Shown piece by piece: positions 18,185-63,090 of a stretch of DNA of 64,000 bases. The DNA comes from a virus. The stretch is from IMG/VR virus record IMGVR_UViG_3300031566_000021; one strand, 5' to 3'. A model generated the notes under the pieces. That model was not told the DNA's origin and made no database searches. It worked only from the letters and a program-made list of their open reading frames with translations. How positions within the stretch are numbered: position 1 is the first letter of the stretch; each line of letters opens with the position of its first letter. The translations under genes and the position numbers were made by a program.

Positions 18185-19798
18185 ATGACAGGTACAGCAC
18201 GCGGTAGTTTCATCGGGCGAGCCCCGACGGTTCTAATACAACCAGCTCCGCCGAAAAAGGGGAATGGTCAGCTGTTCGGCAATCCAGAGCAGTTGAAGTA
18301 CGAGAAGATGTGGGCCCACGAGCAATATCGGGCAGTAGCTCCGGGCGAAAACTGTGCTCAGCTTTTCCTGGCTGAAGCGCGTCCTCCTGCTGGGGCTCAT
18401 GTCATCGACTTCGGTTGCGGTACTGGACGAGGAGCTATCGCGCTCGCGATGTTCGGCAAAGTCAAGGTAACTCTGGTGGATTTCGCCATCAATTGCCTCG
18501 ATCCCTTCGTCTACAAGGCTCTATCGAATCAGGGTGACACGCTGAAATTCATCCAGGCAGACCTCGAAAAGCCGCTGCCTGTTGCTGCACAATATGGCTT
18601 CTGCACCGATGTGATGGAGCACATCCCCGAAGACAAGGTGGAGATCGTGCTCAAGAACATCATGAAGGCCGCGGAGTACGTGTTCTTCCAAATCAGTACC
18701 ACCGATGATGCCTGTGGAGTGCTAATCGGCGAGAAACTCCACCTTACAGTCAAGCCGCCTGCTTGGTGGTCCTTGAAGTTCCGGAACTTGGGAGCCCAAG
18801 TTAACTGGTACAAGGAGTACGACAACTGCGTGATGCTCTACGCTACGGCGTGGAATAGCGCCAGAGAGATCGCCATCCGCGGCACCTTGAACACGGTTAA
18901 GGAAAAGCTCATCGAGAACATCCAGCTCAGCACCAAGCGAGGCTGGCCTCAGATGATCCCTCACGATCGTCAGGATCGCCCCGCTCTGGTTTTGTGTGGT
19001 GGCCCATCCCTGAACGATTATGCAGACGAAATCCGGCAGAAGCGTGAAGGGGGACATTCCCTCATAACCGTTAATGGCGCCTACAAATGGGCCCTAGACC
19101 ACGGGATGGTCCCCTCTGCTCAGGTTATGCTGGACGGTCGAGAGTTCAACAAGCGATTCCTGGAGCCAATCGTCGAGAACTGCCACTATTTCATCGCGAG
19201 CCACTGCGACCCAGCAACCTTCGATATGGTTCCGAAGGGTAAGGGGCTCATCTGGCACTGCGTCGATAACGAGGAACTAGCTGCCCCTCTGAACGAGCAC
19301 TACGGAGAAGGCGCCTGGTTCTACGTCCCCGGCGGTTCCACAGTAGTCCTTCGTACTATCGTCCTGCTACGTATGCTCGGTGTATGGCGTCAAGAGCTCT
19401 ATGGCTTCGACTCCTGCCTGAAGGAGAGCTGGGTATGCCAACAGGCTGATGGCTCACTAGTCAAGCACGACACCCTTGGGCATATCCTCGAGTACAATAC
19501 CAAGGAAGAAGCGCAACAGGCTTCGGACACTCTATCGAACGATTTCGGAGTGCCGAATGTAGCAGTTTCCAAGTATGGACATCACGCCTACGAACAGAAG
19601 GAAAACGACGGACAAAGCGTGGTCAAGGTTACTTGTGGCGGAAGGATCTTCTACTGCAACACGTGGATGGTCTCTCAAGCACACGAGTTCATGGACCAGG
19701 TGAAGTTCATGGGGAACGAGGTTGAGTTAGCCGTCCATGGAGATGGCCTTATCGCGCACATCATCAAGACGGGCGCGGAACTACCTGACAAGGAGTAA
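18185..19798 (+). CDS. fusion of class I SAM methyltransferase and Maf/DUF115 (MptE-like) domain
   Basis: VIDFGCGTG, CTDVMEHIP, HLTV...WW; then VLCGGPSL, ITVNGA, GGSTV, LYGFDS. Confidence 0.75.
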   Translation: MTGTARGSFIGRAPTVLIQPAPPKKGNGQLFGNPEQLKYEKMWAHEQYRAVAPGENCAQLFLAEARPPAGAHVIDFGCGTGRGAIALAMFGKVKVTLVDFAINCLDPFVYKALSNQGDTLKFIQADLEKPLPVAAQYGFCTDVMEHIPEDKVEIVLKNIMKAAEYVFFQISTTDDACGVLIGEKLHLTVKPPAWWSLKFRNLGAQVNWYKEYDNCVMLYATAWNSAREIAIRGTLNTVKEKLIENIQLSTKRGWPQMIPHDRQDRPALVLCGGPSLNDYADEIRQKREGGHSLITVNGAYKWALDHGMVPSAQVMLDGREFNKRFLEPIVENCHYFIASHCDPATFDMVPKGKGLIWHCVDNEELAAPLNEHYGEGAWFYVPGGSTVVLRTIVLLRMLGVWRQELYGFDSCLKESWVCQQADGSLVKHDTLGHILEYNTKEEAQQASDTLSNDFGVPNVAVSKYGHHAYEQKENDGQSVVKVTCGGRIFYCNTWMVSQAHEFMDQVKFMGNEVELAVHGDGLIAHIIKTGAELPDKE

Positions 19799-48695: not shown

Positions 48696-48773
48696 ATGTG
48701 CGAACTAGGCTACGCGGAATATATAGCCATAGGGATCGCCCTCGGCCTACTATTCACTATCGCCATTAGGTGA
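48696..48773 (+). CDS. 25-aa membrane peptide (not in ORF track)
   Basis: GAGGAGGAG RBS; MCELGYAEYIAIGIALGLLFTIAIR; GTGA overlap with the next gene. Confidence 0.5.
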   Translation: MCELGYAEYIAIGIALGLLFTIAIR

Positions 48774-49426
48774 CAGAGATGGCTAATCCACAGCTGACCG
48801 AAACGCTGCTAGGCGGAGGTCTCAACCTTCGAGGCCAGAAGTTTGGGATGCTATCGGTTACACGTCTGTGGCCAAGAAGGCACAATCGGAAACGCATGTG
48901 GGTATGCAAGTGCGACTGTGGGGAGGAAGTCGTTGTTAGGCATGATTACCTATTACACACGAACAATCCCAAGACACATTGCGGATGTGTAAATCGTGGG
49001 CTCCCAACGTTGTACTCCCAGGAATACCATATCCACAACAGCATGCTGAGGAGGTGTTATGTCGAGAATCATGTCGGCTATCCGGCATATGGTGGGCGCG
49101 GTATCCGAGTCTGCGATGCTTGGAAAGATAAGGAAACCGGCTTCGAGGCCTTCTTCAAAGACATGGGAGCACGACCCAGTAAGAAGCACTCTCTGGACCG
49201 AATCGATAGTAACGGAAACTATACTCCCGGAAACGTCCGATGGGCTACGCTTAAGGATCAGGCACGGAATAAGCGGAACTCTGTATATCTCCCTCATCCT
49301 ACCCACGGAGGGCTCGTGCCAGCTGCCGAAGTTGCCGAGTTTCTGGGTATACGATACCAATCCATGAGGGCTCGGTATATCAAAGAGGGTAAGTGGCCAG
49401 GGTCCGATAAAGAAGGTGTTACTTGA
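48770..49426 (+). CDS. HNH homing-endonuclease-like protein
   Basis: CKCDCG, YGGRGIRVC..W, F.AF..DMG.RP, SLDRIDSNGNY.P.NVRWAT. Confidence 0.88.
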   Translation: MTEMANPQLTETLLGGGLNLRGQKFGMLSVTRLWPRRHNRKRMWVCKCDCGEEVVVRHDYLLHTNNPKTHCGCVNRGLPTLYSQEYHIHNSMLRRCYVENHVGYPAYGGRGIRVCDAWKDKETGFEAFFKDMGARPSKKHSLDRIDSNGNYTPGNVRWATLKDQARNKRNSVYLPHPTHGGLVPAAEVAEFLGIRYQSMRARYIKEGKWPGSDKEGVT

Positions 49427-53081: not shown

Positions 53082-53330
53082 ATGAGCGGCGAGCATAAGT
53101 TCGAGGTCAACCTCTTAGCGATACAGACCGCTGTGGATGATCTGAGAGTCTTGGGTGATGCCATGCACTTTATTGCTAAGTATGAAGGTGGGAAGCTTAC
53201 AACAGAGTGCCACCTCATGAAGGGCGGTAAGCGGCTTGCCTCAGTGGAGAACATTCCACAGGTTGCTAAGGGGGAGACCTGCACCATAGTCGTAACCCCC
53301 GATCAGTTCTACATCAAGGTCAGCATGTGA
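53082..53330 (+). CDS. hypothetical protein
   Basis: GGAGG RBS, coupled to both neighbours. Confidence 0.65.
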   Translation: MSGEHKFEVNLLAIQTAVDDLRVLGDAMHFIAKYEGGKLTTECHLMKGGKRLASVENIPQVAKGETCTIVVTPDQFYIKVSM

Positions 53331-53743
53331 TGCTCTCCTCTCAGGCGCCTATCTTTGTGTTCGGATCGAACCTGGCAGGCAGACATGGTCGAGGTTCAGC
53401 AGCAGTAGCTCGTAAGAGGTACGGAGCTGTCTATGGAGTAGGATCCGGATTTCGAGGAAGATCGTACGCGATACCTACCAAGGGGTGGGAGTTGGAGGTC
53501 TTGACTCTCCCTGTCATACAGGAGTTCGTAGACGAGTTCCTTCAATTCACCCAGGTCCATGATACCTGGAGGTTTATCGTGACGAAGATCGGATGTGGTC
53601 TAGCGGGGTACCATGAACTGCAGATCGCCCCCATGTTTCGAAGTGCGCCAGCTACGGTCGCTTTACCAGTAGGCTGGCGTAGACTATCTAACTTGACTTC
53701 TATCCCGGAGGATGGTCAGGCCTCCGTAAGGGAGCAGTCGTGA
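53327..53743 (+). CDS. macrodomain-like phage protein
   Basis: IFVFGSNL.G.HG.G.A, YAIPTK, F.VT.IGCGLAGY. Confidence 0.75.
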   Translation: MMLSSQAPIFVFGSNLAGRHGRGSAAVARKRYGAVYGVGSGFRGRSYAIPTKGWELEVLTLPVIQEFVDEFLQFTQVHDTWRFIVTKIGCGLAGYHELQIAPMFRSAPATVALPVGWRRLSNLTSIPEDGQASVREQS

Positions 53744-54414: not shown

Positions 54415-55134
54415 ATGGACACAACTACCAAGGCCTACGTACTGCTCTCAGGCGGAGTAGATTCATCTACCTGTCTGGGATTCGCTATACGAGAGGTCGG
54501 ACGTCCTCTTGTTACGGCGTACTCCGTCGACTATGGTCAGCGGCACGTTAAGGAAATGGATCACGCAAAGAAGGTTGCCGCCTACTTCGATGTTCCTCAC
54601 ATAGTCTTGGCGCTCCCGGGTATTCCAAAAGTCATGCTGACGGATCCTGAAGCGGAAGTACCAAATGCTGCGTACGCGGACCTTAAGGGGGTTTCACCAA
54701 CATACGTTCCATTCCGAAATGGTCAGCTGATTTCAAGACTAGCTGGAGTAGCTGCTCACGACATCGAGCAACACAACCAGAAGTCGGAGTTCTACGGAAC
54801 GGACGAAAGATGGAAGGGCACATTGTACTTCGGTGCGCATGCGGAAGATGCTGCCGGAGATGCTTATCCGGATTGTAGGTTCGATTTCGTAGGCTCGATG
54901 GCAGCTGCTGTGTACATCGGGTCATATCATTCGCTCCGCCTTCGTGCTCCGCTCATCGAGATGTTCAAGGATGACATCATCTTGGCTGGGATCAAGCTCG
55001 GAGTTCCTTATCACCTGACATGGTCCTGTTACAAAGGCGAGGAGCTTCACTGTGGAACCTGTCCCACCTGCCGAGCAAGAAAAGACGGATTCCGAAAAGC
55101 CGGATTCCCCGACCCCACTCACTACGCCGTCTGA
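54415..55134 (+). CDS. queC: 7-cyano-7-deazaguanine synthase
   Basis: LLSGGVDS, YVPFRN, YPDCR, TWSCY...HCGTCPTC. Confidence 0.95.
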   Translation: MDTTTKAYVLLSGGVDSSTCLGFAIREVGRPLVTAYSVDYGQRHVKEMDHAKKVAAYFDVPHIVLALPGIPKVMLTDPEAEVPNAAYADLKGVSPTYVPFRNGQLISRLAGVAAHDIEQHNQKSEFYGTDERWKGTLYFGAHAEDAAGDAYPDCRFDFVGSMAAAVYIGSYHSLRLRAPLIEMFKDDIILAGIKLGVPYHLTWSCYKGEELHCGTCPTCRARKDGFRKAGFPDPTHYAV

Positions 55135-55284
55135 AAAGCCGACGAAGGTAACAGTACCTCTTATGCCCCGATTTATGGGTGTAGGAGGATTTTCGATTAA
55201 GCTGATGACGGTCCAAGTTCATATGGCCATGCGAGATTGGGCGATTTGGGCTCCGCGTCTGGAAAAGGAAAGGAAGGATAAGAA

Positions 55285-55791
55285 ATGATCACAGCAGAGC
55301 GATACCACGACATCTCTTGCGGGCATCGAGTCTTTGGGCACGAGAGCAAGTGTGCTCATCTTCACGGCCACAACTACCGCATCCATTTTAGGTGCGCCGT
55401 ACCAGCTCTCGATAAGGTCGGGAGAGTGATTGACTTCAGCGTCATGAAGTCCGAGCTGTGTATGTGGGTGGAGGACAACTGGGACCACAAGTTCCTTCTG
55501 TGGCAAGAAGACGATTGGGGTACTACCCTATTCGACTTGGATCCTACTCTCGTCATCCTCCCATTCAATCCGACAGCTGAGAATATGGCTAAGCATCTCG
55601 TAGAGATTGTCGGCCCACTACAGCTGCGGCATTCGGATGTGAACCTAATCTCCTGTACCGTCGAAGAGACCAGGAAGTGCGGAGCTACCTATCTTTGGAG
55701 TGGACCACTCGAGGCTCTGGAAAGCATTAAGGCGCGTGCTCGAGAGTCCGAGAGGAAGTCCTTGGAGGTGGCAAATGCCCAAAAAGGCTAA
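55285..55791 (+). CDS. queD: 6-carboxytetrahydropterin synthase
   Basis: CGHRV...C.HLHGHNY, NPTAENMA, VEET. Confidence 0.92.
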   Translation: MITAERYHDISCGHRVFGHESKCAHLHGHNYRIHFRCAVPALDKVGRVIDFSVMKSELCMWVEDNWDHKFLLWQEDDWGTTLFDLDPTLVILPFNPTAENMAKHLVEIVGPLQLRHSDVNLISCTVEETRKCGATYLWSGPLEALESIKARARESERKSLEVANAQKG

Positions 55792-56407
55792 GGAACCTAT
55801 GGATGGGATGCTCTGGGAGGTTCTCGGTCCAGAGGTTGATAAGATGCGAGAGGTCCTCGAGCTCCTCGGTATCGACCTGGAGGACGAGAACTTTCGTGAA
55901 ACTCATATCCGCTTCGTCAGGTACCTGAAGGAGTATCTTCAGCCCTACGACGTCACCGATGTCCTGGGAATCGACTTCGCAAACCAGAATGCCGTGGGGG
56001 GACATGACTCCTACAAGGGGTTAGTGGCTCAAACGAACATTCCATGGAATACCATCTGTCCACATCATCTCCTTCCTGTTATCGGTCGCTGCCATATCGG
56101 CTACATTCCTAACGATCGTGTTGTTGGGTTGTCCAAACTGACTAGGTTAGCACAGGCTGTGGGTCGTGAGAAGCCACGGATGCAGGAGACGTGCACAGAT
56201 ATCATCGCCGACCAGTTTTCGGAATTGGTCAAGCCTAAAGGTATCGTGGTTGTCATTTCTGCTATCCATGGCTGTATGTCTGGAAGAGGCGTACTAGCGC
56301 ATGAGACACCTACTGTCACATCGACGGTTCGAGGGGTCTTCCGGGATGTCCCACAGGCTCGAGCAGAGTTCTTCGAGCTGGTTAGGATGAACCACGTCAT
56401 ACCCTGA
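55775..56407 (+). CDS. folE: GTP cyclohydrolase I
   Basis: ICPHHLLP, VGLSKL.R, MQE, HGCMSGRGV, TVTS..RGVF. Confidence 0.95.
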   Translation: MPKKAKEPMDGMLWEVLGPEVDKMREVLELLGIDLEDENFRETHIRFVRYLKEYLQPYDVTDVLGIDFANQNAVGGHDSYKGLVAQTNIPWNTICPHHLLPVIGRCHIGYIPNDRVVGLSKLTRLAQAVGREKPRMQETCTDIIADQFSELVKPKGIVVVISAIHGCMSGRGVLAHETPTVTSTVRGVFRDVPQARAEFFELVRMNHVIP

Positions 56408-56411
56408 TAAG

Positions 56412-56456
56412 AGCATCATAAGCCCCTTGATGACCCATATCGAGGTATGCTATAAT
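56412..56456 (+). promoter_or_regulatory. promoter with AGCATCA box variant
   Basis: AGCATCA 56412-56418, 8 nt, TTGATG, 18 nt, TATAAT 56451-56456. Confidence 0.75.
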
Positions 56457-56478
56457 TATAGAAAGGAGGCTTTCTCGA

Positions 56479-57282
56479 ATGTCGCACTATGCTCCCGTCG
56501 TCCCCACTGAAGTCGCTGCGTGGCTCCAGGACGATATCGACTACCTCGGTTCGTATCATCTCATACTGGCGCACGATGTGCTTGACAAACCTGGGGAGTA
56601 TAACCAGATATACAACAATGGTGTCCGGAAGCTGTACAAGGACTCATTCATCATTATGGACAACTCGGTTGTCGAACTCGGTTCGGCAATGGGAATGAAA
56701 GACCTTCTTGAGGCTTGCAAGATCGTTAAGCCAGACTGTCTCGTAATGCCTGATGTAATGGGTGACGGGTTTGCTACCAGAGAGCTGGCAGCAGACTTCT
56801 GCAAGGAGTTCGCTGGGGCGGCTGTAGGGAATCCTGATTTCGACCACATTATCCTAATGGGTGTTGTCCAAGGAGTGTCTCTCGAGGAGTGCTACCACAC
56901 GGCGAGCCTGTATTACACGCTGCCTCTAGTGCGTCACATCGGTGTCCCTCGGGTACTGACGAAGCAATTCGGCACCAGAGCGCAGGTAGTACATAAGATG
57001 ATCTCCGCTCCTCTATTCGATCGGATCCATCTGCTTGGCTTCTCGGACAACCTCCTGGATGACGTCGCTTGTGCTCGTATGCCTGGAGTTGCTGGGATCG
57101 ATTCCGCGGTTCCAGTTCGAGCTGGGCTAGCTGATATCATGCTGACTATTGAGGAGGAGCGTGACTATGGTCCTCGTGGAGACTTCTGGGACACCCTCAT
57201 GGAGATGTGCGATGCGCATGATCATAGCATCACCACGAATATCTCCATGTTCCGTTACTGGATTGGAGACACAGCCCGGTGA
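56479..57282 (+). CDS. dpdA: divergent TGT-fold DpdA-like 7-deazaguanine DNA transglycosylase
   Basis: IMDNS..E.G, MPDV..D...T, MGVVQG, IHLLG, GIDSA.P in TGT order; lies inside the que cluster. Confidence 0.65.
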   Translation: MSHYAPVVPTEVAAWLQDDIDYLGSYHLILAHDVLDKPGEYNQIYNNGVRKLYKDSFIIMDNSVVELGSAMGMKDLLEACKIVKPDCLVMPDVMGDGFATRELAADFCKEFAGAAVGNPDFDHIILMGVVQGVSLEECYHTASLYYTLPLVRHIGVPRVLTKQFGTRAQVVHKMISAPLFDRIHLLGFSDNLLDDVACARMPGVAGIDSAVPVRAGLADIMLTIEEERDYGPRGDFWDTLMEMCDAHDHSITTNISMFRYWIGDTAR

Positions 57283-59801
57283 CAGGAGAAGTCATCCCGA
57301 TTAAGAGGGCTCTTGGGGTAGCTCCAGTCCCGGAGATCCCCAAGTTCATCCCCGAGTTATGCCCTAATTGTCCTCAGGCTGGAGGTCGTAAAGTTGGCGC
57401 TCGAGGCAATCTAAGCGCTCCTCTGGTCATCCTAGGTGAGTCACCCGGAGCTCAGGAACTACGATTCGGAGCCCCTTTTGTTGGTCCTAGTGGTGAACTG
57501 CTAGGTAAGTGTTTGCCGGAGGACTTCGACCTGGATAGAGATGCCTTCATCATCAATGCGATGCAGTGTAGGCCTCCTAAGTACAGCGACCAGAACAGAG
57601 CTAAGGAGTGGAAGAGCCGAGCCTGCTCCGCTTGTCACAATCGCGTGATAGGCCAGATACTATCACACCCGAGGAAGTGTGTCTTAGCCCTAGGTGGTTG
57701 GGCAAATGCTGTCCTGACTGGTGACCATGACTTCAAGATTACCCAACGGAGGGGCGAGCCCTATCCTTTACTGATCCGGGATGAGATCACTGAGGAGGTC
57801 ACCGATGAGGTGATTGTTGTCCCAGCTGTGCATCCGGCCTTTCTTCTTAGAGGCTCTGGTAATCCGATCTCCTTCAAGGCTGATCTCCGGCTGGCTCTCT
57901 CGCTAGCATACCCTGACCGAGTGTCGCATGCGGATGTTCGATCGGACGTCGAGTGGGAGGATCCTGATGTTGCTGTTATGGAGACGCTACCCGATTTACG
58001 TCAGTTCTGGCACAGGTTAAGTGCACAACAAATATACGGAACTATTGAGGTAGCCTGCGATATTGAGACATCGGGCTTCAATGCTTATACAGACTATATC
58101 CTTTCGATAGGCTTCTATACCCCCTTGTTAGAGGACGCCGGCTTCATCATTCCAGGACGGAATCTCGACGATGAACTGTACCGACAGCAAGTCCGACAGA
58201 TATTTAAGATGCCTGGTATTCGCTGGATTTGGCAAGCAGGTAAATTCGACGAAGAGTTCCTGATCGAGAAAGGGCTCATTGACCTTGATGCGGAGATCGT
58301 CCATGAGGATACCTTACTACTGTCCTACGCAATGTCAGAGGCTACAAGGGATCATGACCTCGATGAGCAGGCAAAGAACGATCTAGGAGCACCCAAACAT
58401 AAGGACATGCTGAAGCAGTGGGTGCCTAAGAAGTCGGACTCATACGCTAAGGTTCCTGAGCCGATTCTATTCGACTATCACGCCAAGGACACTAAGAAGA
58501 CTTACCTGGTCTGGAAACATAAGAGGCCTCAGGTACGAGCTGACGCTCACCTAGAGAAGCTGTATACCCAGACACTTATACCTGTGAGCCATCTGCTTGT
58601 TAGGATTCAACGGTATGGAATTCATGTCGATTGGGATTATGTCAGGATCAATCGAGAAGGAGCTACCCAGGAAGATCTCGATAGCGGGTTAGTGATAGAG
58701 CTCGAACCTGGTCTGGAGTTTGAACTCGAAGACACCTTAGGCACTTTGGAGGGGGTGGCTGGCTGGAGAGTCAATCCGAATTCCCCGGCTGAAGTATCGA
58801 AGCTGTTGTACGATCAGTTCAGGCTCGTTATCAAAGGACGTCGTCCGCAGGACACTACGAAGGAGACCTTTGATAAACTTCCTAACCATCCTGCAGTAAA
58901 CCTTATCCGTCGGTATAGATCCTACACCAAAATGCTGAGCACTTACGTGCAGGCAATCGAGGTAAGGGCTCTTGAGGATCGGATCCATACTACATTCAAG
59001 CTCCATGCTACTACTACTGGTAGGCTATCATCTAGTGAGCCGAACATCCAGAACATACCCAGAGGCGCTCGCTGGAGGCGGATGTATTGTGCTAGACCTG
59101 GGTACGTATTGATTGAGGCCGACTATAACTCCGCTGAATTACGGATGTTGGCTGTACTATCACAGGATGCTTTCCTAACTGGCGTATTCCTAGACGGCAA
59201 GCGGAACCTTCACGACGAGGTTAGCATCGCTATGTATGGGGTGAACTTCGATATCGACCAACGCATACGTGCGAAGGCAATTAACTTCGGTATACCCTAT
59301 GGGAGGGAGGCCTTCTCCGTCGCCCAGGAATTCGACATTTCGGGTAGGGAAGCACAAAGGCTAATCGATGCGTGGTTCGAGCGTGCTCCTGAAGCGGCTC
59401 TGTTCCTTAAGAAGTGCCGACGTGCTCCCCTCCAAGGGAAGACACTGATCACAGTGTTCGGACGCAAACGCCGTCCTGGGGTTGTTTCTTCGGAACGGCA
59501 GCACAGTTTGCAGAATGAGTTTGCCAATTTCCATATGCAAAGTCCGATTTCCGACTTCACCCTCCATTCAGCCCTCGACCTTATAGATCCGCTCGAGGAG
59601 CTCGGAGCTGGAATTGTGAACTTAGTACATGACTCGCTACTCATCGAGTGCCCTAATAATCCTGAGGCTATCGGACAGGTGAAGTTGATGGCCAAAACCG
59701 TAATGGAGCATGTACCGACGCAGTGGATTAACACACCGATCAAGTTTGCTGTTGACCTCAAGGTGGGAACACATTGGGGATTACTCGAGAAGGCCGACTA
59801 A
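57279..59801 (+). CDS. polA: family A DNA polymerase with N-terminal family-4 UDG-like domain and 3'-5' exonuclease
   Basis: CPNC, GESPG, FVGPSG, CRPP, HPAF; DIETSG; TGRLSSSEPNIQNIP, DYNSAELR, KAINFGIPYG, VHDS. Confidence 0.95.
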   Translation: MTGEVIPIKRALGVAPVPEIPKFIPELCPNCPQAGGRKVGARGNLSAPLVILGESPGAQELRFGAPFVGPSGELLGKCLPEDFDLDRDAFIINAMQCRPPKYSDQNRAKEWKSRACSACHNRVIGQILSHPRKCVLALGGWANAVLTGDHDFKITQRRGEPYPLLIRDEITEEVTDEVIVVPAVHPAFLLRGSGNPISFKADLRLALSLAYPDRVSHADVRSDVEWEDPDVAVMETLPDLRQFWHRLSAQQIYGTIEVACDIETSGFNAYTDYILSIGFYTPLLEDAGFIIPGRNLDDELYRQQVRQIFKMPGIRWIWQAGKFDEEFLIEKGLIDLDAEIVHEDTLLLSYAMSEATRDHDLDEQAKNDLGAPKHKDMLKQWVPKKSDSYAKVPEPILFDYHAKDTKKTYLVWKHKRPQVRADAHLEKLYTQTLIPVSHLLVRIQRYGIHVDWDYVRINREGATQEDLDSGLVIELEPGLEFELEDTLGTLEGVAGWRVNPNSPAEVSKLLYDQFRLVIKGRRPQDTTKETFDKLPNHPAVNLIRRYRSYTKMLSTYVQAIEVRALEDRIHTTFKLHATTTGRLSSSEPNIQNIPRGARWRRMYCARPGYVLIEADYNSAELRMLAVLSQDAFLTGVFLDGKRNLHDEVSIAMYGVNFDIDQRIRAKAINFGIPYGREAFSVAQEFDISGREAQRLIDAWFERAPEAALFLKKCRRAPLQGKTLITVFGRKRRPGVVSSERQHSLQNEFANFHMQSPISDFTLHSALDLIDPLEELGAGIVNLVHDSLLIECPNNPEAIGQVKLMAKTVMEHVPTQWINTPIKFAVDLKVGTHWGLLEKAD

Positions 59802-59821
59802 CTAACTGAAGGCAGAGCCAC

Positions 59822-60097
59822 ATGAAGACGGATGACCTTGTTTCTATCCCTGATCTTGTTCCTGAACTGGAGACGTATCTCTACGTACATCGTTGCTGGC
59901 AAGACCATGACCTCGCGAAGAGTGAGAAGATGTCGGTTGAGCGAGCTATCAAGCTGTTACGCGAGTGTGCTATGGAGGCAACCAAGAAGCGAACAGGGAC
60001 TCGATTGGCAACTCGTTGTTACAAGCTGCTTGATGCTATTGTCTGCACAAACGTCTCGCCTGTTGATAACGTAGTTGAACTCCCGCGCAGGGGCTAG
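59822..60097 (+). CDS. hypothetical protein
   Basis: 91 aa between polA and queE. Confidence 0.65.
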   Translation: MKTDDLVSIPDLVPELETYLYVHRCWQDHDLAKSEKMSVERAIKLLRECAMEATKKRTGTRLATRCYKLLDAIVCTNVSPVDNVVELPRRG

Positions 60098-60900
60098 TGG
60101 TCATGTTTGGTACAAATCCCGTTCGAAAACAGGATCTGCGTCTAGACCAACCAGACGTAGGAACTCTCGATGTCCATGAAATCTTCCCCACCATTCAAGG
60201 AGAGGGTCCTTTCTCTGGACAGCCTTGTATCTTTCTCCGGCTGTGGGGCTGCAATCTACGGTGCTACTTCTGCGACACAGACTTCGAGACGCGGCGCCTT
60301 AAGATGGATCCGCATAGGATCATGGAGTCCATCGAGAGGACTGCAATGATCAAGGTCAACACCAAGCTGATAGTCATTACAGGTGGTGAGCCGCTGCGCC
60401 AGAACATTCTGCCTCTTTGTGTGTTGGCCGCTACTATGGGCTGGGATATCCAAATCGAGACCGCTGGTACTCTTTGGGTTCCTGGCCTAGAGGAGTTGAT
60501 CCATCAAGGGAGGCTGACTCTTGTGTGCTCCCCTAAGACGGGTAAGGTGGATGATAACGTCGCTAGGTGGTGTACAGACTGGAAGTACCTTGTCCGTAAA
60601 GGCCAGAACAACGAGATCGATGGTCTACCTGACTACTCGACCCAGGAGGAAGGGAAGAAGCTATCGCTGTACAGGCCCACTAAGGACTCCGACACTATTT
60701 GGCTCCAGCCTTGTGAGGAATATGCCGTCGCTAAGATTCCTGTTGCCACTATAGGAGTTTCTGGTACGGACCAAATGGTCACTTCGAAGGCTCGGAACGA
60801 AGGGCGGTCGGAGGAGAACATTATTGCTTGCGGAGCTATTGCTATGGCGCATGGCTACCGAGTGAGCCTCCAAATGCATAAGTACCTTAAGCTTCCCTAA
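60097..60900 (+). CDS. queE: 7-carboxy-7-deazaguanine synthase (radical SAM)
   Basis: EIF.TIQGEG, CNLRCYFCDT, ITGGEPL, IETAG, SPK, SLQMHK; start GTG 60097 or ATG 60103. Confidence 0.95.
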   Translation: MVMFGTNPVRKQDLRLDQPDVGTLDVHEIFPTIQGEGPFSGQPCIFLRLWGCNLRCYFCDTDFETRRLKMDPHRIMESIERTAMIKVNTKLIVITGGEPLRQNILPLCVLAATMGWDIQIETAGTLWVPGLEELIHQGRLTLVCSPKTGKVDDNVARWCTDWKYLVRKGQNNEIDGLPDYSTQEEGKKLSLYRPTKDSDTIWLQPCEEYAVAKIPVATIGVSGTDQMVTSKARNEGRSEENIIACGAIAMAHGYRVSLQMHKYLKLP

Positions 60901-60993: not shown

Positions 60994-61419
60994 ATGAAAC
61001 TAGTACCCGTTAATCCGGACGACTTTCCGGACATTCGAGAAGGTCGCAGAGGGCGTGTGTCATATCCCTTACTCAAGTCGTTCCTGGAGACCAACGAGAG
61101 GCTCGTTATGGTCGATCGCACAGGGATGCAGCAGTCCATGCAAGGACTGACGTCGTGCTTGGGATCGTATATCCGCTCACATGGTTTGCCGATCAAGTTG
61201 ATAACCCGATCGGGGCAGATCTATTTGGCCAGAACGGATATTGACTCCGAGACCAATGAGATCGCTAGTCAAGGTACCATTGAGGACTACTCGAAAGCTG
61301 TTCGTGCTCCGGGTGGTTCCTCTAATGTGGTCGAGATCGAGCACCCTGGGGCGACGCCAATCAATGCAAGCGAGGTGAAGACCCGCTTCGCTGTTGAGAA
61401 GGATCAGGTAGGTAAGTAG
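60994..61419 (+). CDS. hypothetical protein (possible DNA-binding)
   Basis: AAGGAAG RBS; basic RRGR patch and compact alpha/beta N-terminal half. Confidence 0.7.
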   Translation: MKLVPVNPDDFPDIREGRRGRVSYPLLKSFLETNERLVMVDRTGMQQSMQGLTSCLGSYIRSHGLPIKLITRSGQIYLARTDIDSETNEIASQGTIEDYSKAVRAPGGSSNVVEIEHPGATPINASEVKTRFAVEKDQVGK

Positions 61420-62067
61420 ATGTCTGCTGATCCTACCAAGGTGTTGGTAGTTTGTGCCCGTAGATATAATGGGCATGAACTCTGGACTGCTCTCGGTGTT
61501 ATGCAGGAGGCAGGCCTAGAATTCGAGGTTGTATCCCAGGCAAAATACATCGAGGACGAAGTTACGGGGCAACCCAATGTACTCGAACGGAAGGTCTGGG
61601 ATGTCGATCCTTCGGAGATGACCTCGAAGTTCGGAGCTCTTATGCTTGTCTCCGGTAACATGGGAGATACAGAGGCCTACTGGAAGGATAACCATGTCCT
61701 AGGGCTAGTAGAGGCTGCCAATGCACCCCTCCAGCCTATCGCAGCCATCTGCTGTTCCGTTCCAACGATCCGGAATGCAGCACGAGGTAAGGCTGTAAGC
61801 TTCTTCCCTCTTATCCGATCGCGGGAACTTCTGACTAGAGCAGGAGCTATCCTACGTACCGTAGCTTGGACTGTTGATCAGAACTTGGTCACGGCCGAGC
61901 ATCAAATGGCTACCCAAATGTGGGCGGAGGCCTTTGTCGGTATGATTTACGGACGTGAACCTCCAAAGCCGCTACATGATTCTGGATACGTCCCTAAGGG
62001 TCGTCTTGTAAGAACGCCGAAGGTCATCGACGATATGCGTAGGGCAGCCAAGAAGACTACCGAGTGA
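61420..62067 (+). CDS. DJ-1/PfpI family protein
   Basis: N-terminal Glu (GHEL), AL.LVSG, nucleophile elbow IAAICC, VDQNLVTA. Confidence 0.85.
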   Translation: MSADPTKVLVVCARRYNGHELWTALGVMQEAGLEFEVVSQAKYIEDEVTGQPNVLERKVWDVDPSEMTSKFGALMLVSGNMGDTEAYWKDNHVLGLVEAANAPLQPIAAICCSVPTIRNAARGKAVSFFPLIRSRELLTRAGAILRTVAWTVDQNLVTAEHQMATQMWAEAFVGMIYGREPPKPLHDSGYVPKGRLVRTPKVIDDMRRAAKKTTE

Positions 62068-62591
62068 GATACGACCGAGAGTGTTTGTACGACGTCCCGT
62101 GGCAGTTGCTGCGGTTGCAGATGGTAGGTGGTTGGACTATGAGGTCCGGCATATCTACCAATCTAGAACGGCTAAGTGTCTACGTCGATCTGGGGTTCAT
62201 CGGGAAAAACTCGCCTGAGCGGATCTGGAGAGCCCTCAACTGCCTCAATGCCGTTCTCCTCGGGTATGGTCAAGGAGCTGCTCTAGGAAGAGATCCTCCG
62301 GACACTAAGCCATTAGTGGTAGCTTCTCGAGACCTGTTGAGTCTAGAGCACCAGGAAAGGCCTCTAGACACCCTCAAGAAGTGGGATTGGGAACTTGTAC
62401 GGAATGATATGCAGATGCCCACGTGGACCTACTCGGATCTGCGGTACCTCCGAACTAACCTACAAAGACGACTAACATCTGCTAGGAGACGTAAGGTCGA
62501 TCCGAAGGTAACGAGACCTGAGCTGGTGCGCTTCCTAGATATGCTCAACACCGAATTACTTCGCCGTCGGAGGAGCAACCATGGCACGTGA
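62064..62591 (+). CDS. hypothetical protein
   Basis: GTGA-coupled 175-aa ORF. Confidence 0.65.
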   Translation: MRYDRECLYDVPWQLLRLQMVGGWTMRSGISTNLERLSVYVDLGFIGKNSPERIWRALNCLNAVLLGYGQGAALGRDPPDTKPLVVASRDLLSLEHQERPLDTLKKWDWELVRNDMQMPTWTYSDLRYLRTNLQRRLTSARRRKVDPKVTRPELVRFLDMLNTELLRRRRSNHGT

Positions 62592-63090
62592 TAAGCGAAT
62601 GTACTACAGCGTTGGAGCTGATGAGCCGCGTCCTGTTGGTGTTGCTGTCCATCTTGATATGCTGCTTAGTGACGAGATCCTTGGGTTTACTGGCACTCGC
62701 GAGATCCCTACAGGAGAACAGGCTGCTAGGATGGTCGAGTTCATACCGATAGCTGCGGAGATACACCACGGATGCTGTGTAGGGGCCGATGAGGCTGCTC
62801 ATGCTATCGCTATGAACAATCAGGTGGCGATAGTTAAACATCCACCTACTGATAAGAGCCAGATGGCTCGTACCTGTACAGGCGGAGAAGAGCGTACTCC
62901 TCTACCTTACCTTGAACGCAACAAGAGGATAGTGTTCGAGTCTAGTCTACTGTTGGCAGTACCCAAGAGTGTGGTCGAAGAGCAGCGAGGATCAGGTACT
63001 TGGGCTACTATTCGATATGCAAGGGGGCTCTACCTACCCCACATCATCATTTACCCAGATGGGTCTTACGACCTAGTAGTCTATCAGTGA
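62581..63090 (+). CDS. SLOG superfamily (YspA/DprA-like) nucleotide-binding protein
   Basis: GFTGTR, HHGCCVGAD, YLERN..IV, SGTWATIRYA. Confidence 0.8.
   Translation: MARDKRMYYSVGADEPRPVGVAVHLDMLLSDEILGFTGTREIPTGEQAARMVEFIPIAAEIHHGCCVGADEAAHAIAMNNQVAIVKHPPTDKSQMARTCTGGEERTPLPYLERNKRIVFESSLLLAVPKSVVEEQRGSGTWATIRYARGLYLPHIIIYPDGSYDLVVYQ

Follow-up and report, generated by a model that had tools for sequence, protein, structure and literature searches.

What use does a phage make of a complete set of genes for a modified purine base that is threaded around its DNA polymerase gene? This question is raised by a stretch of 64,000 nucleotides from an uncultured phage (IMG/VR record IMGVR_UViG_3300031566_000021; the whole stretch is hereafter called the window), in which positions 54,415 to 60,900 encode the enzymes for 7-cyano-7-deazaguanine (preQ0), a DNA polymerase, and a protein of 267 amino acids (aa). 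We hold with considerable confidence that this region is a phage DNA-modification module that makes preQ0, and that the 267-aa protein is a DpdA3-type enzyme that would insert this base into DNA. The initial annotation had listed queC, queD, folE, a 267-aa gene with the fold of a tRNA-guanine transglycosylase (TGT), and queE; all five are intact and located on the plus strand, at or very near the coordinates that it had assigned to them, and the polymerase gene is indeed interleaved, separating queE from the other pathway genes. The genes in question are the following:

54415..55134, plus strand: queC, preQ0 synthase, 239 aa (PF06508, E 1.5e-48; TIGR00364, E 3.4e-39)
55285..55791, plus strand: queD, 6-carboxytetrahydropterin synthase, 168 aa (PF01242, E 2.6e-22; TIGR03367, E 2.5e-19)
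55775..56407, plus strand: folE, GTP cyclohydrolase I, 210 aa (PF01227, E 2e-45; CPHH motif)
56479..57282, plus strand: predicted DpdA3-type 7-deazaguanine transglycosylase (P0001), 267 aa (TGT fold; linked to DpdA3 of phages phiST and CP220 by hidden Markov model (HMM) and hhalign comparisons)
57279..59801, plus strand: fusion of a family-4 uracil-DNA glycosylase (UDG), a 3'-5' exonuclease and a family A DNA polymerase (PolA), 840 aa (PF03167, PF01612, PF00476)
60103..60900, plus strand: queE, 7-carboxy-7-deazaguanine (CDG) synthase of the radical S-adenosylmethionine (SAM) type, 265 aa (PF04055, E 8.9e-10; CNLRCYFC motif)

FolE, QueD, QueE and QueC turn GTP into the free base preQ0. Judged from its sequence, the window contains this pathway in complete form, and the signature motifs of all four enzymes are intact. 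QueC possesses the SGGVDSS PP-loop and a C-terminal Cys cluster (C..CGTCPTC). QueD keeps the signature CxxxHGH as CAHLHGH, the catalytic Cys included, and is therefore not DpdL, a protein without this catalytic residue. The open reading frame (ORF) of folE opens at 55700, with a likely start at 55775, and gene calls on identical contigs yield the same 210-aa protein; the queE ORF opens at 60097, with a likely start at 60103. The five best NCBIfam matches of QueE are all QueE models, each scoring below the cut-off of its model. We accept its orthology despite these scores because synteny in related loci supports it: the protein is 55% identical to the QueE encoded between QueD and FolE in one such relative (L004). 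This is the usual place of queE, which in the window phage is now found 3' of the polymerase gene.

The 267-aa protein has no match in Pfam (even at E 5), NCBIfam or PHROGs, and sequence searches of the PDB with the single protein and with its family profile gave nothing relevant. Its AlphaFold model is a confidently predicted TIM barrel (predicted local distance difference test score 95.2; predicted template modeling (TM) score 0.92), and comparison of this model with solved structures bears out the TGT fold that had been claimed for 56479-57282. The top 50 entries are all tRNA-guanine transglycosylases, and the best of them reach a Z-score of 16.9 with a root-mean-square deviation (rmsd) of 3.6 Å over 238 aligned residues, spanning residues 1-263 of the model. 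A Foldseek search likewise retrieved TGT (E 2e-7), and other barrels score as well (e.g., at rank 34). The protein belongs to a very large family. A word-indexed search yielded 445 homologs, and a profile built from 41 homologs matched 4568 representative clusters (formed at 50% identity) at E <= 0.001, 3221 of them at E <= 1e-10; the 150 best listed clusters all have a length of about 240-290 aa.

We scored column conservation over 41 homologs of the 267-aa protein. Invariant columns are D61-N62-S63, D92, G132, P157-R158, R167, H184, G187-F188-S189, G206-I-D208-S209, R233 and W237; Q131 and L186 are near-invariant (at least 90%), and C198 is the sole Cys column at this level. In the AlphaFold model, the invariant columns are located at or just past the predicted barrel strands. 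A hhalign comparison with the TGT of Escherichia coli, which is non-significant (probability 1.2%, E 0.042) and was used for motif pairing only, pairs family columns with FD143, the IQG motif, the GVG motif and GID264 of that enzyme. By analogy, we infer that D208 would be the nucleophile and D92 the base-recognizing Asp. The enzymes of Zymomonas mobilis and E. coli thus resemble the window protein in fold and in paired motifs; they differ from it in their match to PF01702 and in being about 100 residues longer, and their CxCxxC..H zinc site falls into a gap of the alignment. The previously reported lack of an obvious Cys cluster for zinc binding was correct: the 267-aa protein has no CxCxxC, and in the alignment the CDCYTC motif of TGT stands opposite a gap. 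The genetic context of bacterial TGT is that of tRNA, whereas the context of the window gene is that of DNA.

The initial annotation had taken the small size of this protein and its missing zinc cluster as signs of a possible distinct subfamily. Placement by HMM among the DpdA subfamilies points elsewhere: our sequence and structure comparisons assign the protein to the DpdA3 type, a subfamily named by Cui, Hutinet et al. (NAR 2023, PMC10516641), within which it represents a separate deep clade. The protein encoded between the CDG genes and the polymerase gene of Cellulophaga phage phi19:2 is 100% identical to phiST CGPG_00065, the founding DpdA3, and hhalign aligns the window family with this phi19:2/phiST protein at a probability of 96.8% (E 2.8e-10, 228 columns). 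When run against whole phage records, the family HMM picks exactly the DpdA3 gene of phi19:2/phiST (2e-13), and it also matches a homolog in Chryseobacterium phage MA9V-3 (1e-12) and a 263-aa ORF of Campylobacter phage CP220 (2e-12); it has no match in the whole records of PaMx25, which encodes a DpdA1, or of ACP17. In a library of viral protein structures (BFVD), phiST DpdA3 occupies rank 3 (TM-scores 0.74/0.76, rmsd 3.6), and proteins that carry the annotation queuine tRNA-ribosyltransferase rank far below it. Proteins from Bacillus phages link the window family and the phiST family in tblastn searches.

Residues D61-N62, D92, Q131-G132, R167, H184, G187, D208 and N254 are common to the window protein and known DpdA3, and the catalytic columns are common to the window clade, to proteins of Firmicute phages, to phiST and to CP220. 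The CxCxxC cluster is absent from the window protein, phiST and CP220 alike; its lack is therefore normal for DpdA3 and does not mark a new subfamily. The other transglycosylase types gave no comparable signal. PF01702, the family of canonical TGT, DpdA1 and DpdA2, and the DpdA4 family (DUF6610, PF20314) did not match the 267-aa protein at E-values up to 5, and phmmer searches of the window in six frames with TGT and DpdA1 queries found nothing. The window clade, which includes a protein of Brevundimonas phage StAshley, received a Shimodaira-Hasegawa-like approximate likelihood ratio test value of 96. Long branches separate it from the Firmicute-phage clade, phiST and CP220, and the deeper branching order is unsafe.

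To place the gene in its genomic context, we collected 80 IMG/VR loci that encode a family member and clustered their ORFs. Many of these loci are truncated; 44 of them are well flanked, with at least 5 kb upstream and at least 4 kb downstream. PolA is found in 78 of the 80 loci, QueE in 73, FolE in 71, and QueD and QueC in 63 each. All six components (QueC, QueD, QueE, FolE, the DpdA3-like gene and PolA) occur together in 38 of the 44 well-flanked loci, and QueC in 42 of them. In 64 of 79 loci, the polymerase ORF opens within 150 bp of the DpdA3-like stop codon; in the window, the stop codon of the 267-aa gene overlaps the polymerase start by four bases (GTGA). The cultured phages StAshley, Youna2 (Weizmannia) and BSP7 (Bacillus), of which the last two represent the Firmicute branch, have the order QueC, QueD, QueE, FolE, a hypothetical protein of about 260 aa and the polymerase, and metagenomic contigs are arranged likewise. 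Recurrent neighbors in the relatives are a helix-turn-helix protein, ribonucleotide reductase, ThyX and a dCTP-deaminase/dUTPase-like protein. A 71-bp gap precedes the 267-aa gene and harbors a promoter-like site (56427..56456, plus strand; TTGATG, 18 nt, TATAAT with TG; 10/12 matches). It is a consensus match only; sites of this kind are no more numerous in the region than chance would give.

Which base would this enzyme insert? Our searches agree with the claim that the window holds no known tailoring gene. A six-frame phmmer search (--max) of the whole window with E. coli QueF, the Gat-QueC protein of PaMx25 and DpdL of phi19:2 returned only QueC, through the QueC part of Gat-QueC; QueF, a Gat domain, DpdL, canonical TGT and DpdA1 were all not found. 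Pfam scans of about 58 window ORFs revealed no QueF, no ArcS-like combination of PF01702 and PUA, no DUF3109 and no PF00551 formyltransferase, with DpdC not queried and a few small ORFs unscanned. QueF had no match in any of the 80 relatives either. Since the window lacks a recognizable QueF, amidinotransferase, decarboxylase, methylase and formylase, and since the conserved core of the relatives ends at preQ0, the simplest predicted product is dPreQ0. That the virion DNA carries a 7-deazaguanine modification is very probably true and is the best inference from these sequences.

We propose that the region is the DNA-modification part of the phage replication module. FolE, QueD, QueE and QueC would supply preQ0 from GTP. 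By analogy with TGT and through residue equivalence, the attack on C1' of a deoxyguanosine, with loss of guanine, would fall to Asp208, while the incoming 7-deazaguanine would be held by Asp92, Gln131 and Gly187 and then joined to the sugar. The inserted base would most simply be preQ0, and the resulting dPreQ0 in the virion DNA would protect it from restriction enzymes. Phages with 7-deazaguanine DNA are known to be shielded from restriction enzymes and, in experiments in vitro, also from Cas9. Given its own promoter-like site and its translational coupling to the polymerase gene, we suggest that enzyme and replisome are synthesized together. The DNA of DpdA3 phages contains 7-deazaguanines, with complete replacement of G in the tested members (PMC10516641), and a high degree of replacement is therefore plausible for the window phage as well.

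Several points weigh against this proposal. The residue equivalence with TGT rests on a non-significant alignment combined with fold superposition, and identity to the experimentally linked DpdA3 proteins is 16-19%, with the window clade set off by long branches. The authors who described DpdA3 considered preQ0 an unlikely substrate of it, as their own examples lack QueC or continue to preQ1, and they based this doubt on the pathways of phiST and the Campylobacter phages, which stop earlier (PMC10516641); their attempts to reconstitute DpdA3 activity in E. coli failed (PMC10516641). Moreover, a gene pair located downstream of queE may alter the final base. With respect to the substrate, the sequences suggest that the window clade is a counter-example to the view that preQ0 is an unlikely DpdA3 substrate.

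The gene pair in question gives rise to the best-surviving alternative, and comprises these two features:

60994..61419, plus strand: orf141 (P0122), winged-helix-like protein, 141 aa, directly upstream of the DJ-1/PfpI gene
61420..62067, plus strand: DJ-1/PfpI-family protein (P0121), candidate accessory or tailoring enzyme (PF01965, E 5e-10)

According to this alternative, the final base is not preQ0, and orf141 and the DJ-1/PfpI protein with its Cys nucleophile form an undescribed two-protein component of the phage 7-deazaguanine pathway. We regard this as possible though rather doubtful. The pair may serve in tailoring, for example by hydrating the nitrile of preQ0 (as base or in DNA) via a Cys-thioimidate to the amide, yielding dADG; or it may act as a glutaminase that gives ammonia to QueC or for the formation of an amidine (G+), in the manner of the Gat domain of Gat-QueC. 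The DJ-1/PfpI protein has about 490 homologs at 55-72% identity. In 42 of 42 IMG/VR loci an orf141-like gene lies directly upstream of the DJ-1 homolog, which makes the two an obligate pair, and a que or dpdA gene is found within 10 kb in 32 of these loci. In about 20 loci, the pair sits between QueC and QueD or QueE. As a rule, QueC precedes the pair by 1-2 kb, and QueD or QueE follows about 1 kb beyond it. An orf141-like ORF of about 140 aa precedes DJ-1 in each of three contexts that we inspected, two of which show the order QueC, orf, DJ-1, QueD, QueE, FolE. The motifs AICCS, AEHQM, H19-E20 and E160-H161 are invariant in the DJ-1/PfpI family, whose nearest solved relatives, with weak E-values only, are plant DJ-1D and PfpI proteases. 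The conserved core of orf141 comprises about 65 residues (RGRVSYP..K.F.E) and is modeled by AlphaFold as helix-strand-helix-strand-strand; orf141 has no family and no significant fold match, the search giving weak winged-helix rows only.

Linkage of this kind has to be set against the optional nature of the pair, which is present in only one of the 80 nearest DpdA3-like loci and has no que gene within 10 kb in 10 of its own 42 loci. The pair is also found with several DpdA3-like subclades that differ in their pocket residues, an observation that speaks against an altered inserted base. DJ-1 proteins, moreover, are known in many roles unrelated to this one. No homolog of the DJ-1/PfpI protein was detected among about 50,700 cultured-phage records, and a literature search found no link of DJ-1/PfpI proteins to preQ0. 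The pair may serve in nitrile conversion, in ammonia supply or in something unrelated. As a nitrile converter, it would give the phages that carry it, among them the window phage, a base that differs from plain dPreQ0.

A second alternative to insertion of preQ0 into DNA, which we consider unlikely, is that the base is exchanged on free nucleotides (dGMP or dGTP) before or during replication, or through a salvage route, and that the adjoining polymerase incorporates the product. The complete replacement of G in DpdA3 phages (PMC10516641) would fit such a route, as would a 267-aa enzyme about 100 residues shorter than TGT and without its zinc subdomain, and the coupling of the DpdA3-like gene to a polymerase gene in 64 of 79 loci. 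A minority of the relatives, moreover, carry a nucleotide-processing gene in the module: a phosphoribosyltransferase and MazG, both within the que cluster, or a dGTP diphosphohydrolase (PF18909), or else a deoxynucleoside monophosphate (dNMP) kinase (L015 6872-7799; L004 574-1089; L001 13941-15706). These genes hint at a nucleotide-level route in some lineages. They are, however, infrequent, each being found in only 2-10 of the 80 relatives (phosphoribosyltransferase 5, MazG 4, dGTP diphosphohydrolase 10, dNMP kinase 2). Pfam scans of the window ORFs revealed no MazG, phosphoribosyltransferase or kinase, and a search of the window for the dGTP diphosphohydrolase of L004 met only unrelated ORFs at the corresponding position. 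All characterized TGT and DpdA enzymes act on polynucleotides. The literature argues for post-replicative insertion (PMC10516641). With no phosphoribosyltransferase, MazG, kinase or dGTP diphosphohydrolase in the window, insertion into DNA is the more economical assumption.

That the genes serve queuosine metabolism in host or phage tRNA, with the 267-aa protein acting on tRNA, or that its TIM barrel is unrelated to base exchange, is very improbable. In favor of this view, the best matches among solved structures are enzymes that act on tRNA, and the TIM barrel is a widespread fold of which other examples score in Foldseek too. Against it, there is no tRNA gene anywhere in the 64-kb window, the protein has no zinc subdomain, and its catalytic Asp, Gln and Gly columns do not vary across a huge family. 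Strict linkage ties the gene to que genes and to the polymerase, and the nearest relatives come from phages with the modification in DNA, not in tRNA (PMC10516641).

The window module resembles the known systems to different degrees. With DpdA3 of phiST and CP220 it shares a TGT-fold enzyme of about 260 aa that has no zinc cluster and has common D-N, D, Q-G, R, H-x-L-G, D-S/T and N columns; in both cases the gene adjoins a polymerase gene and is found together with FolE, QueD and QueE. The systems differ in that the window phage has QueC and no DpdL, QueF or DpdN was found in it, so that its predicted product is dPreQ0; the conserved Gly is followed by F-S in the window protein versus A-G in phiST and C-Q in CP220, and the polymerase is a UDG-fused PolA versus one of the Pol III alpha type in the known DpdA3 system. 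Phages PaMx25 and iggy (Queuovirinae, DpdA1; PMC10484667) likewise embed preQ0 genes in a replication module with Sak4, exonuclease, helicase and polymerase, and the QueD of PaMx25 is 68% identical to that of the window. In contrast, the DpdA1 of PaMx25 has no detectable similarity to the window family (hhalign probability 0.06; no HMM match), and PaMx25 has a 466-aa Gat-QueC fusion whereas the window QueC is plain.

The only cultured phages with a protein of the window clade are the Brevundimonas phages vB_BpoS-StAshley and MaInes (ON529865, ON529866), at 37% identity. They resemble the window phage in the order QueC, QueD, QueE, hypothetical protein and DNA polymerase. They differ from it by a phosphoribosyltransferase, a dNMP kinase and a ribonucleotide reductase beside FolE, and by the lack of the DJ-1 pair; the gene for the 267-aa homolog is annotated as hypothetical in them.

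The phage itself has a genome of about 68 kb, of which the window covers 64 kb; identical contigs reach up to 68,056 bp, and the stretch is present in soil and marine-sediment metagenomes from nine studies. Its replication module extends from 49.4 to 64 kb, entirely on the plus strand. It begins with an SNF2 helicase, a PDDEXK exonuclease, a Sak4/AAA_24 protein and a DUF669 single-stranded DNA-binding protein (SSB), and continues with QueC, QueD, FolE, the 267-aa protein, the UDG4-exonuclease-PolA fusion, a 91-aa ORF and QueE. After QueE follow the 141-aa ORF, the DJ-1/PfpI protein, three small ORFs and a DNA ligase. The ORF located between polymerase and QueE had no family match:

59822..60097, plus strand: 91-aa ORF directly 3' of the polymerase gene, with same-position homologs in 13 other loci

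The N-terminal domain of the polymerase (57279-57970) resembles an intact family-4 uracil-DNA glycosylase, with GESPG, HPAFLLR and four Cys residues. Relative L015 encodes the UDG on its own, with the DpdA3-like gene on one side and PolA on the other, and Firmicute-phage polymerases that adjoin DpdA3-like genes apparently have no UDG domain. Between Sak4 and the SSB, 53327-53743 encodes a 138-aa protein of the A1S_2505 phage non-structural family (NF049995, E 8e-40; phrog_2072). Further downstream, 62581-63090 encodes a 169-aa protein with weak DprA and YspA (SLOG) matches (E 0.014 and 0.044, respectively) and a homolog in relative L004. Among the head/neck genes, 18185-19798 encodes a 537-aa fusion of a SAM methyltransferase with an MptE-like/DUF115 domain (PF01973, E 1.3e-12).

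Just ahead of the replication module, the product of orf218 (48770-49426; 218 aa) combines a Cys-rich Zn-ribbon with an HNH-like motif (HSLDRIDSNGNYTPGNVRWAT). It has homologs in 17 related loci, and in Bacillus phage BSP7 one of them (BSP7_052) lies between QueE and FolE. We considered orf218 as a conserved que-linked gene and rejected it, since its sequence reads as that of an HNH-type Zn-ribbon protein; it is probably a mobile passenger, a homing-type gene.

Modification of DNA with 7-deazaguanines is already known as an anti-restriction strategy, and this principle is unchanged by the window. New are the size of the unannotated family, the predicted combination of DpdA3 with a preQ0 end-point, and the DJ-1/PfpI pair. 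7-Deazaguanine DNA has a bearing on phage therapy and on how phage DNA is sequenced and cloned, and it is a source of tools for DNA modification. Far from being a rarity of a few marine and Campylobacter phages, the DpdA3 type makes up a very large family that Pfam, NCBIfam and PHROGs leave unannotated and that is fixed beside the polymerase gene of many soil and sediment siphophages. The DJ-1/PfpI gene pair travels with que clusters and could be a missing step of the pathway. Most of the phages that carry a DpdA3-type gene beside their polymerase possess QueC and no further tailoring gene, which predicts that they contain dPreQ0 made by DpdA3.

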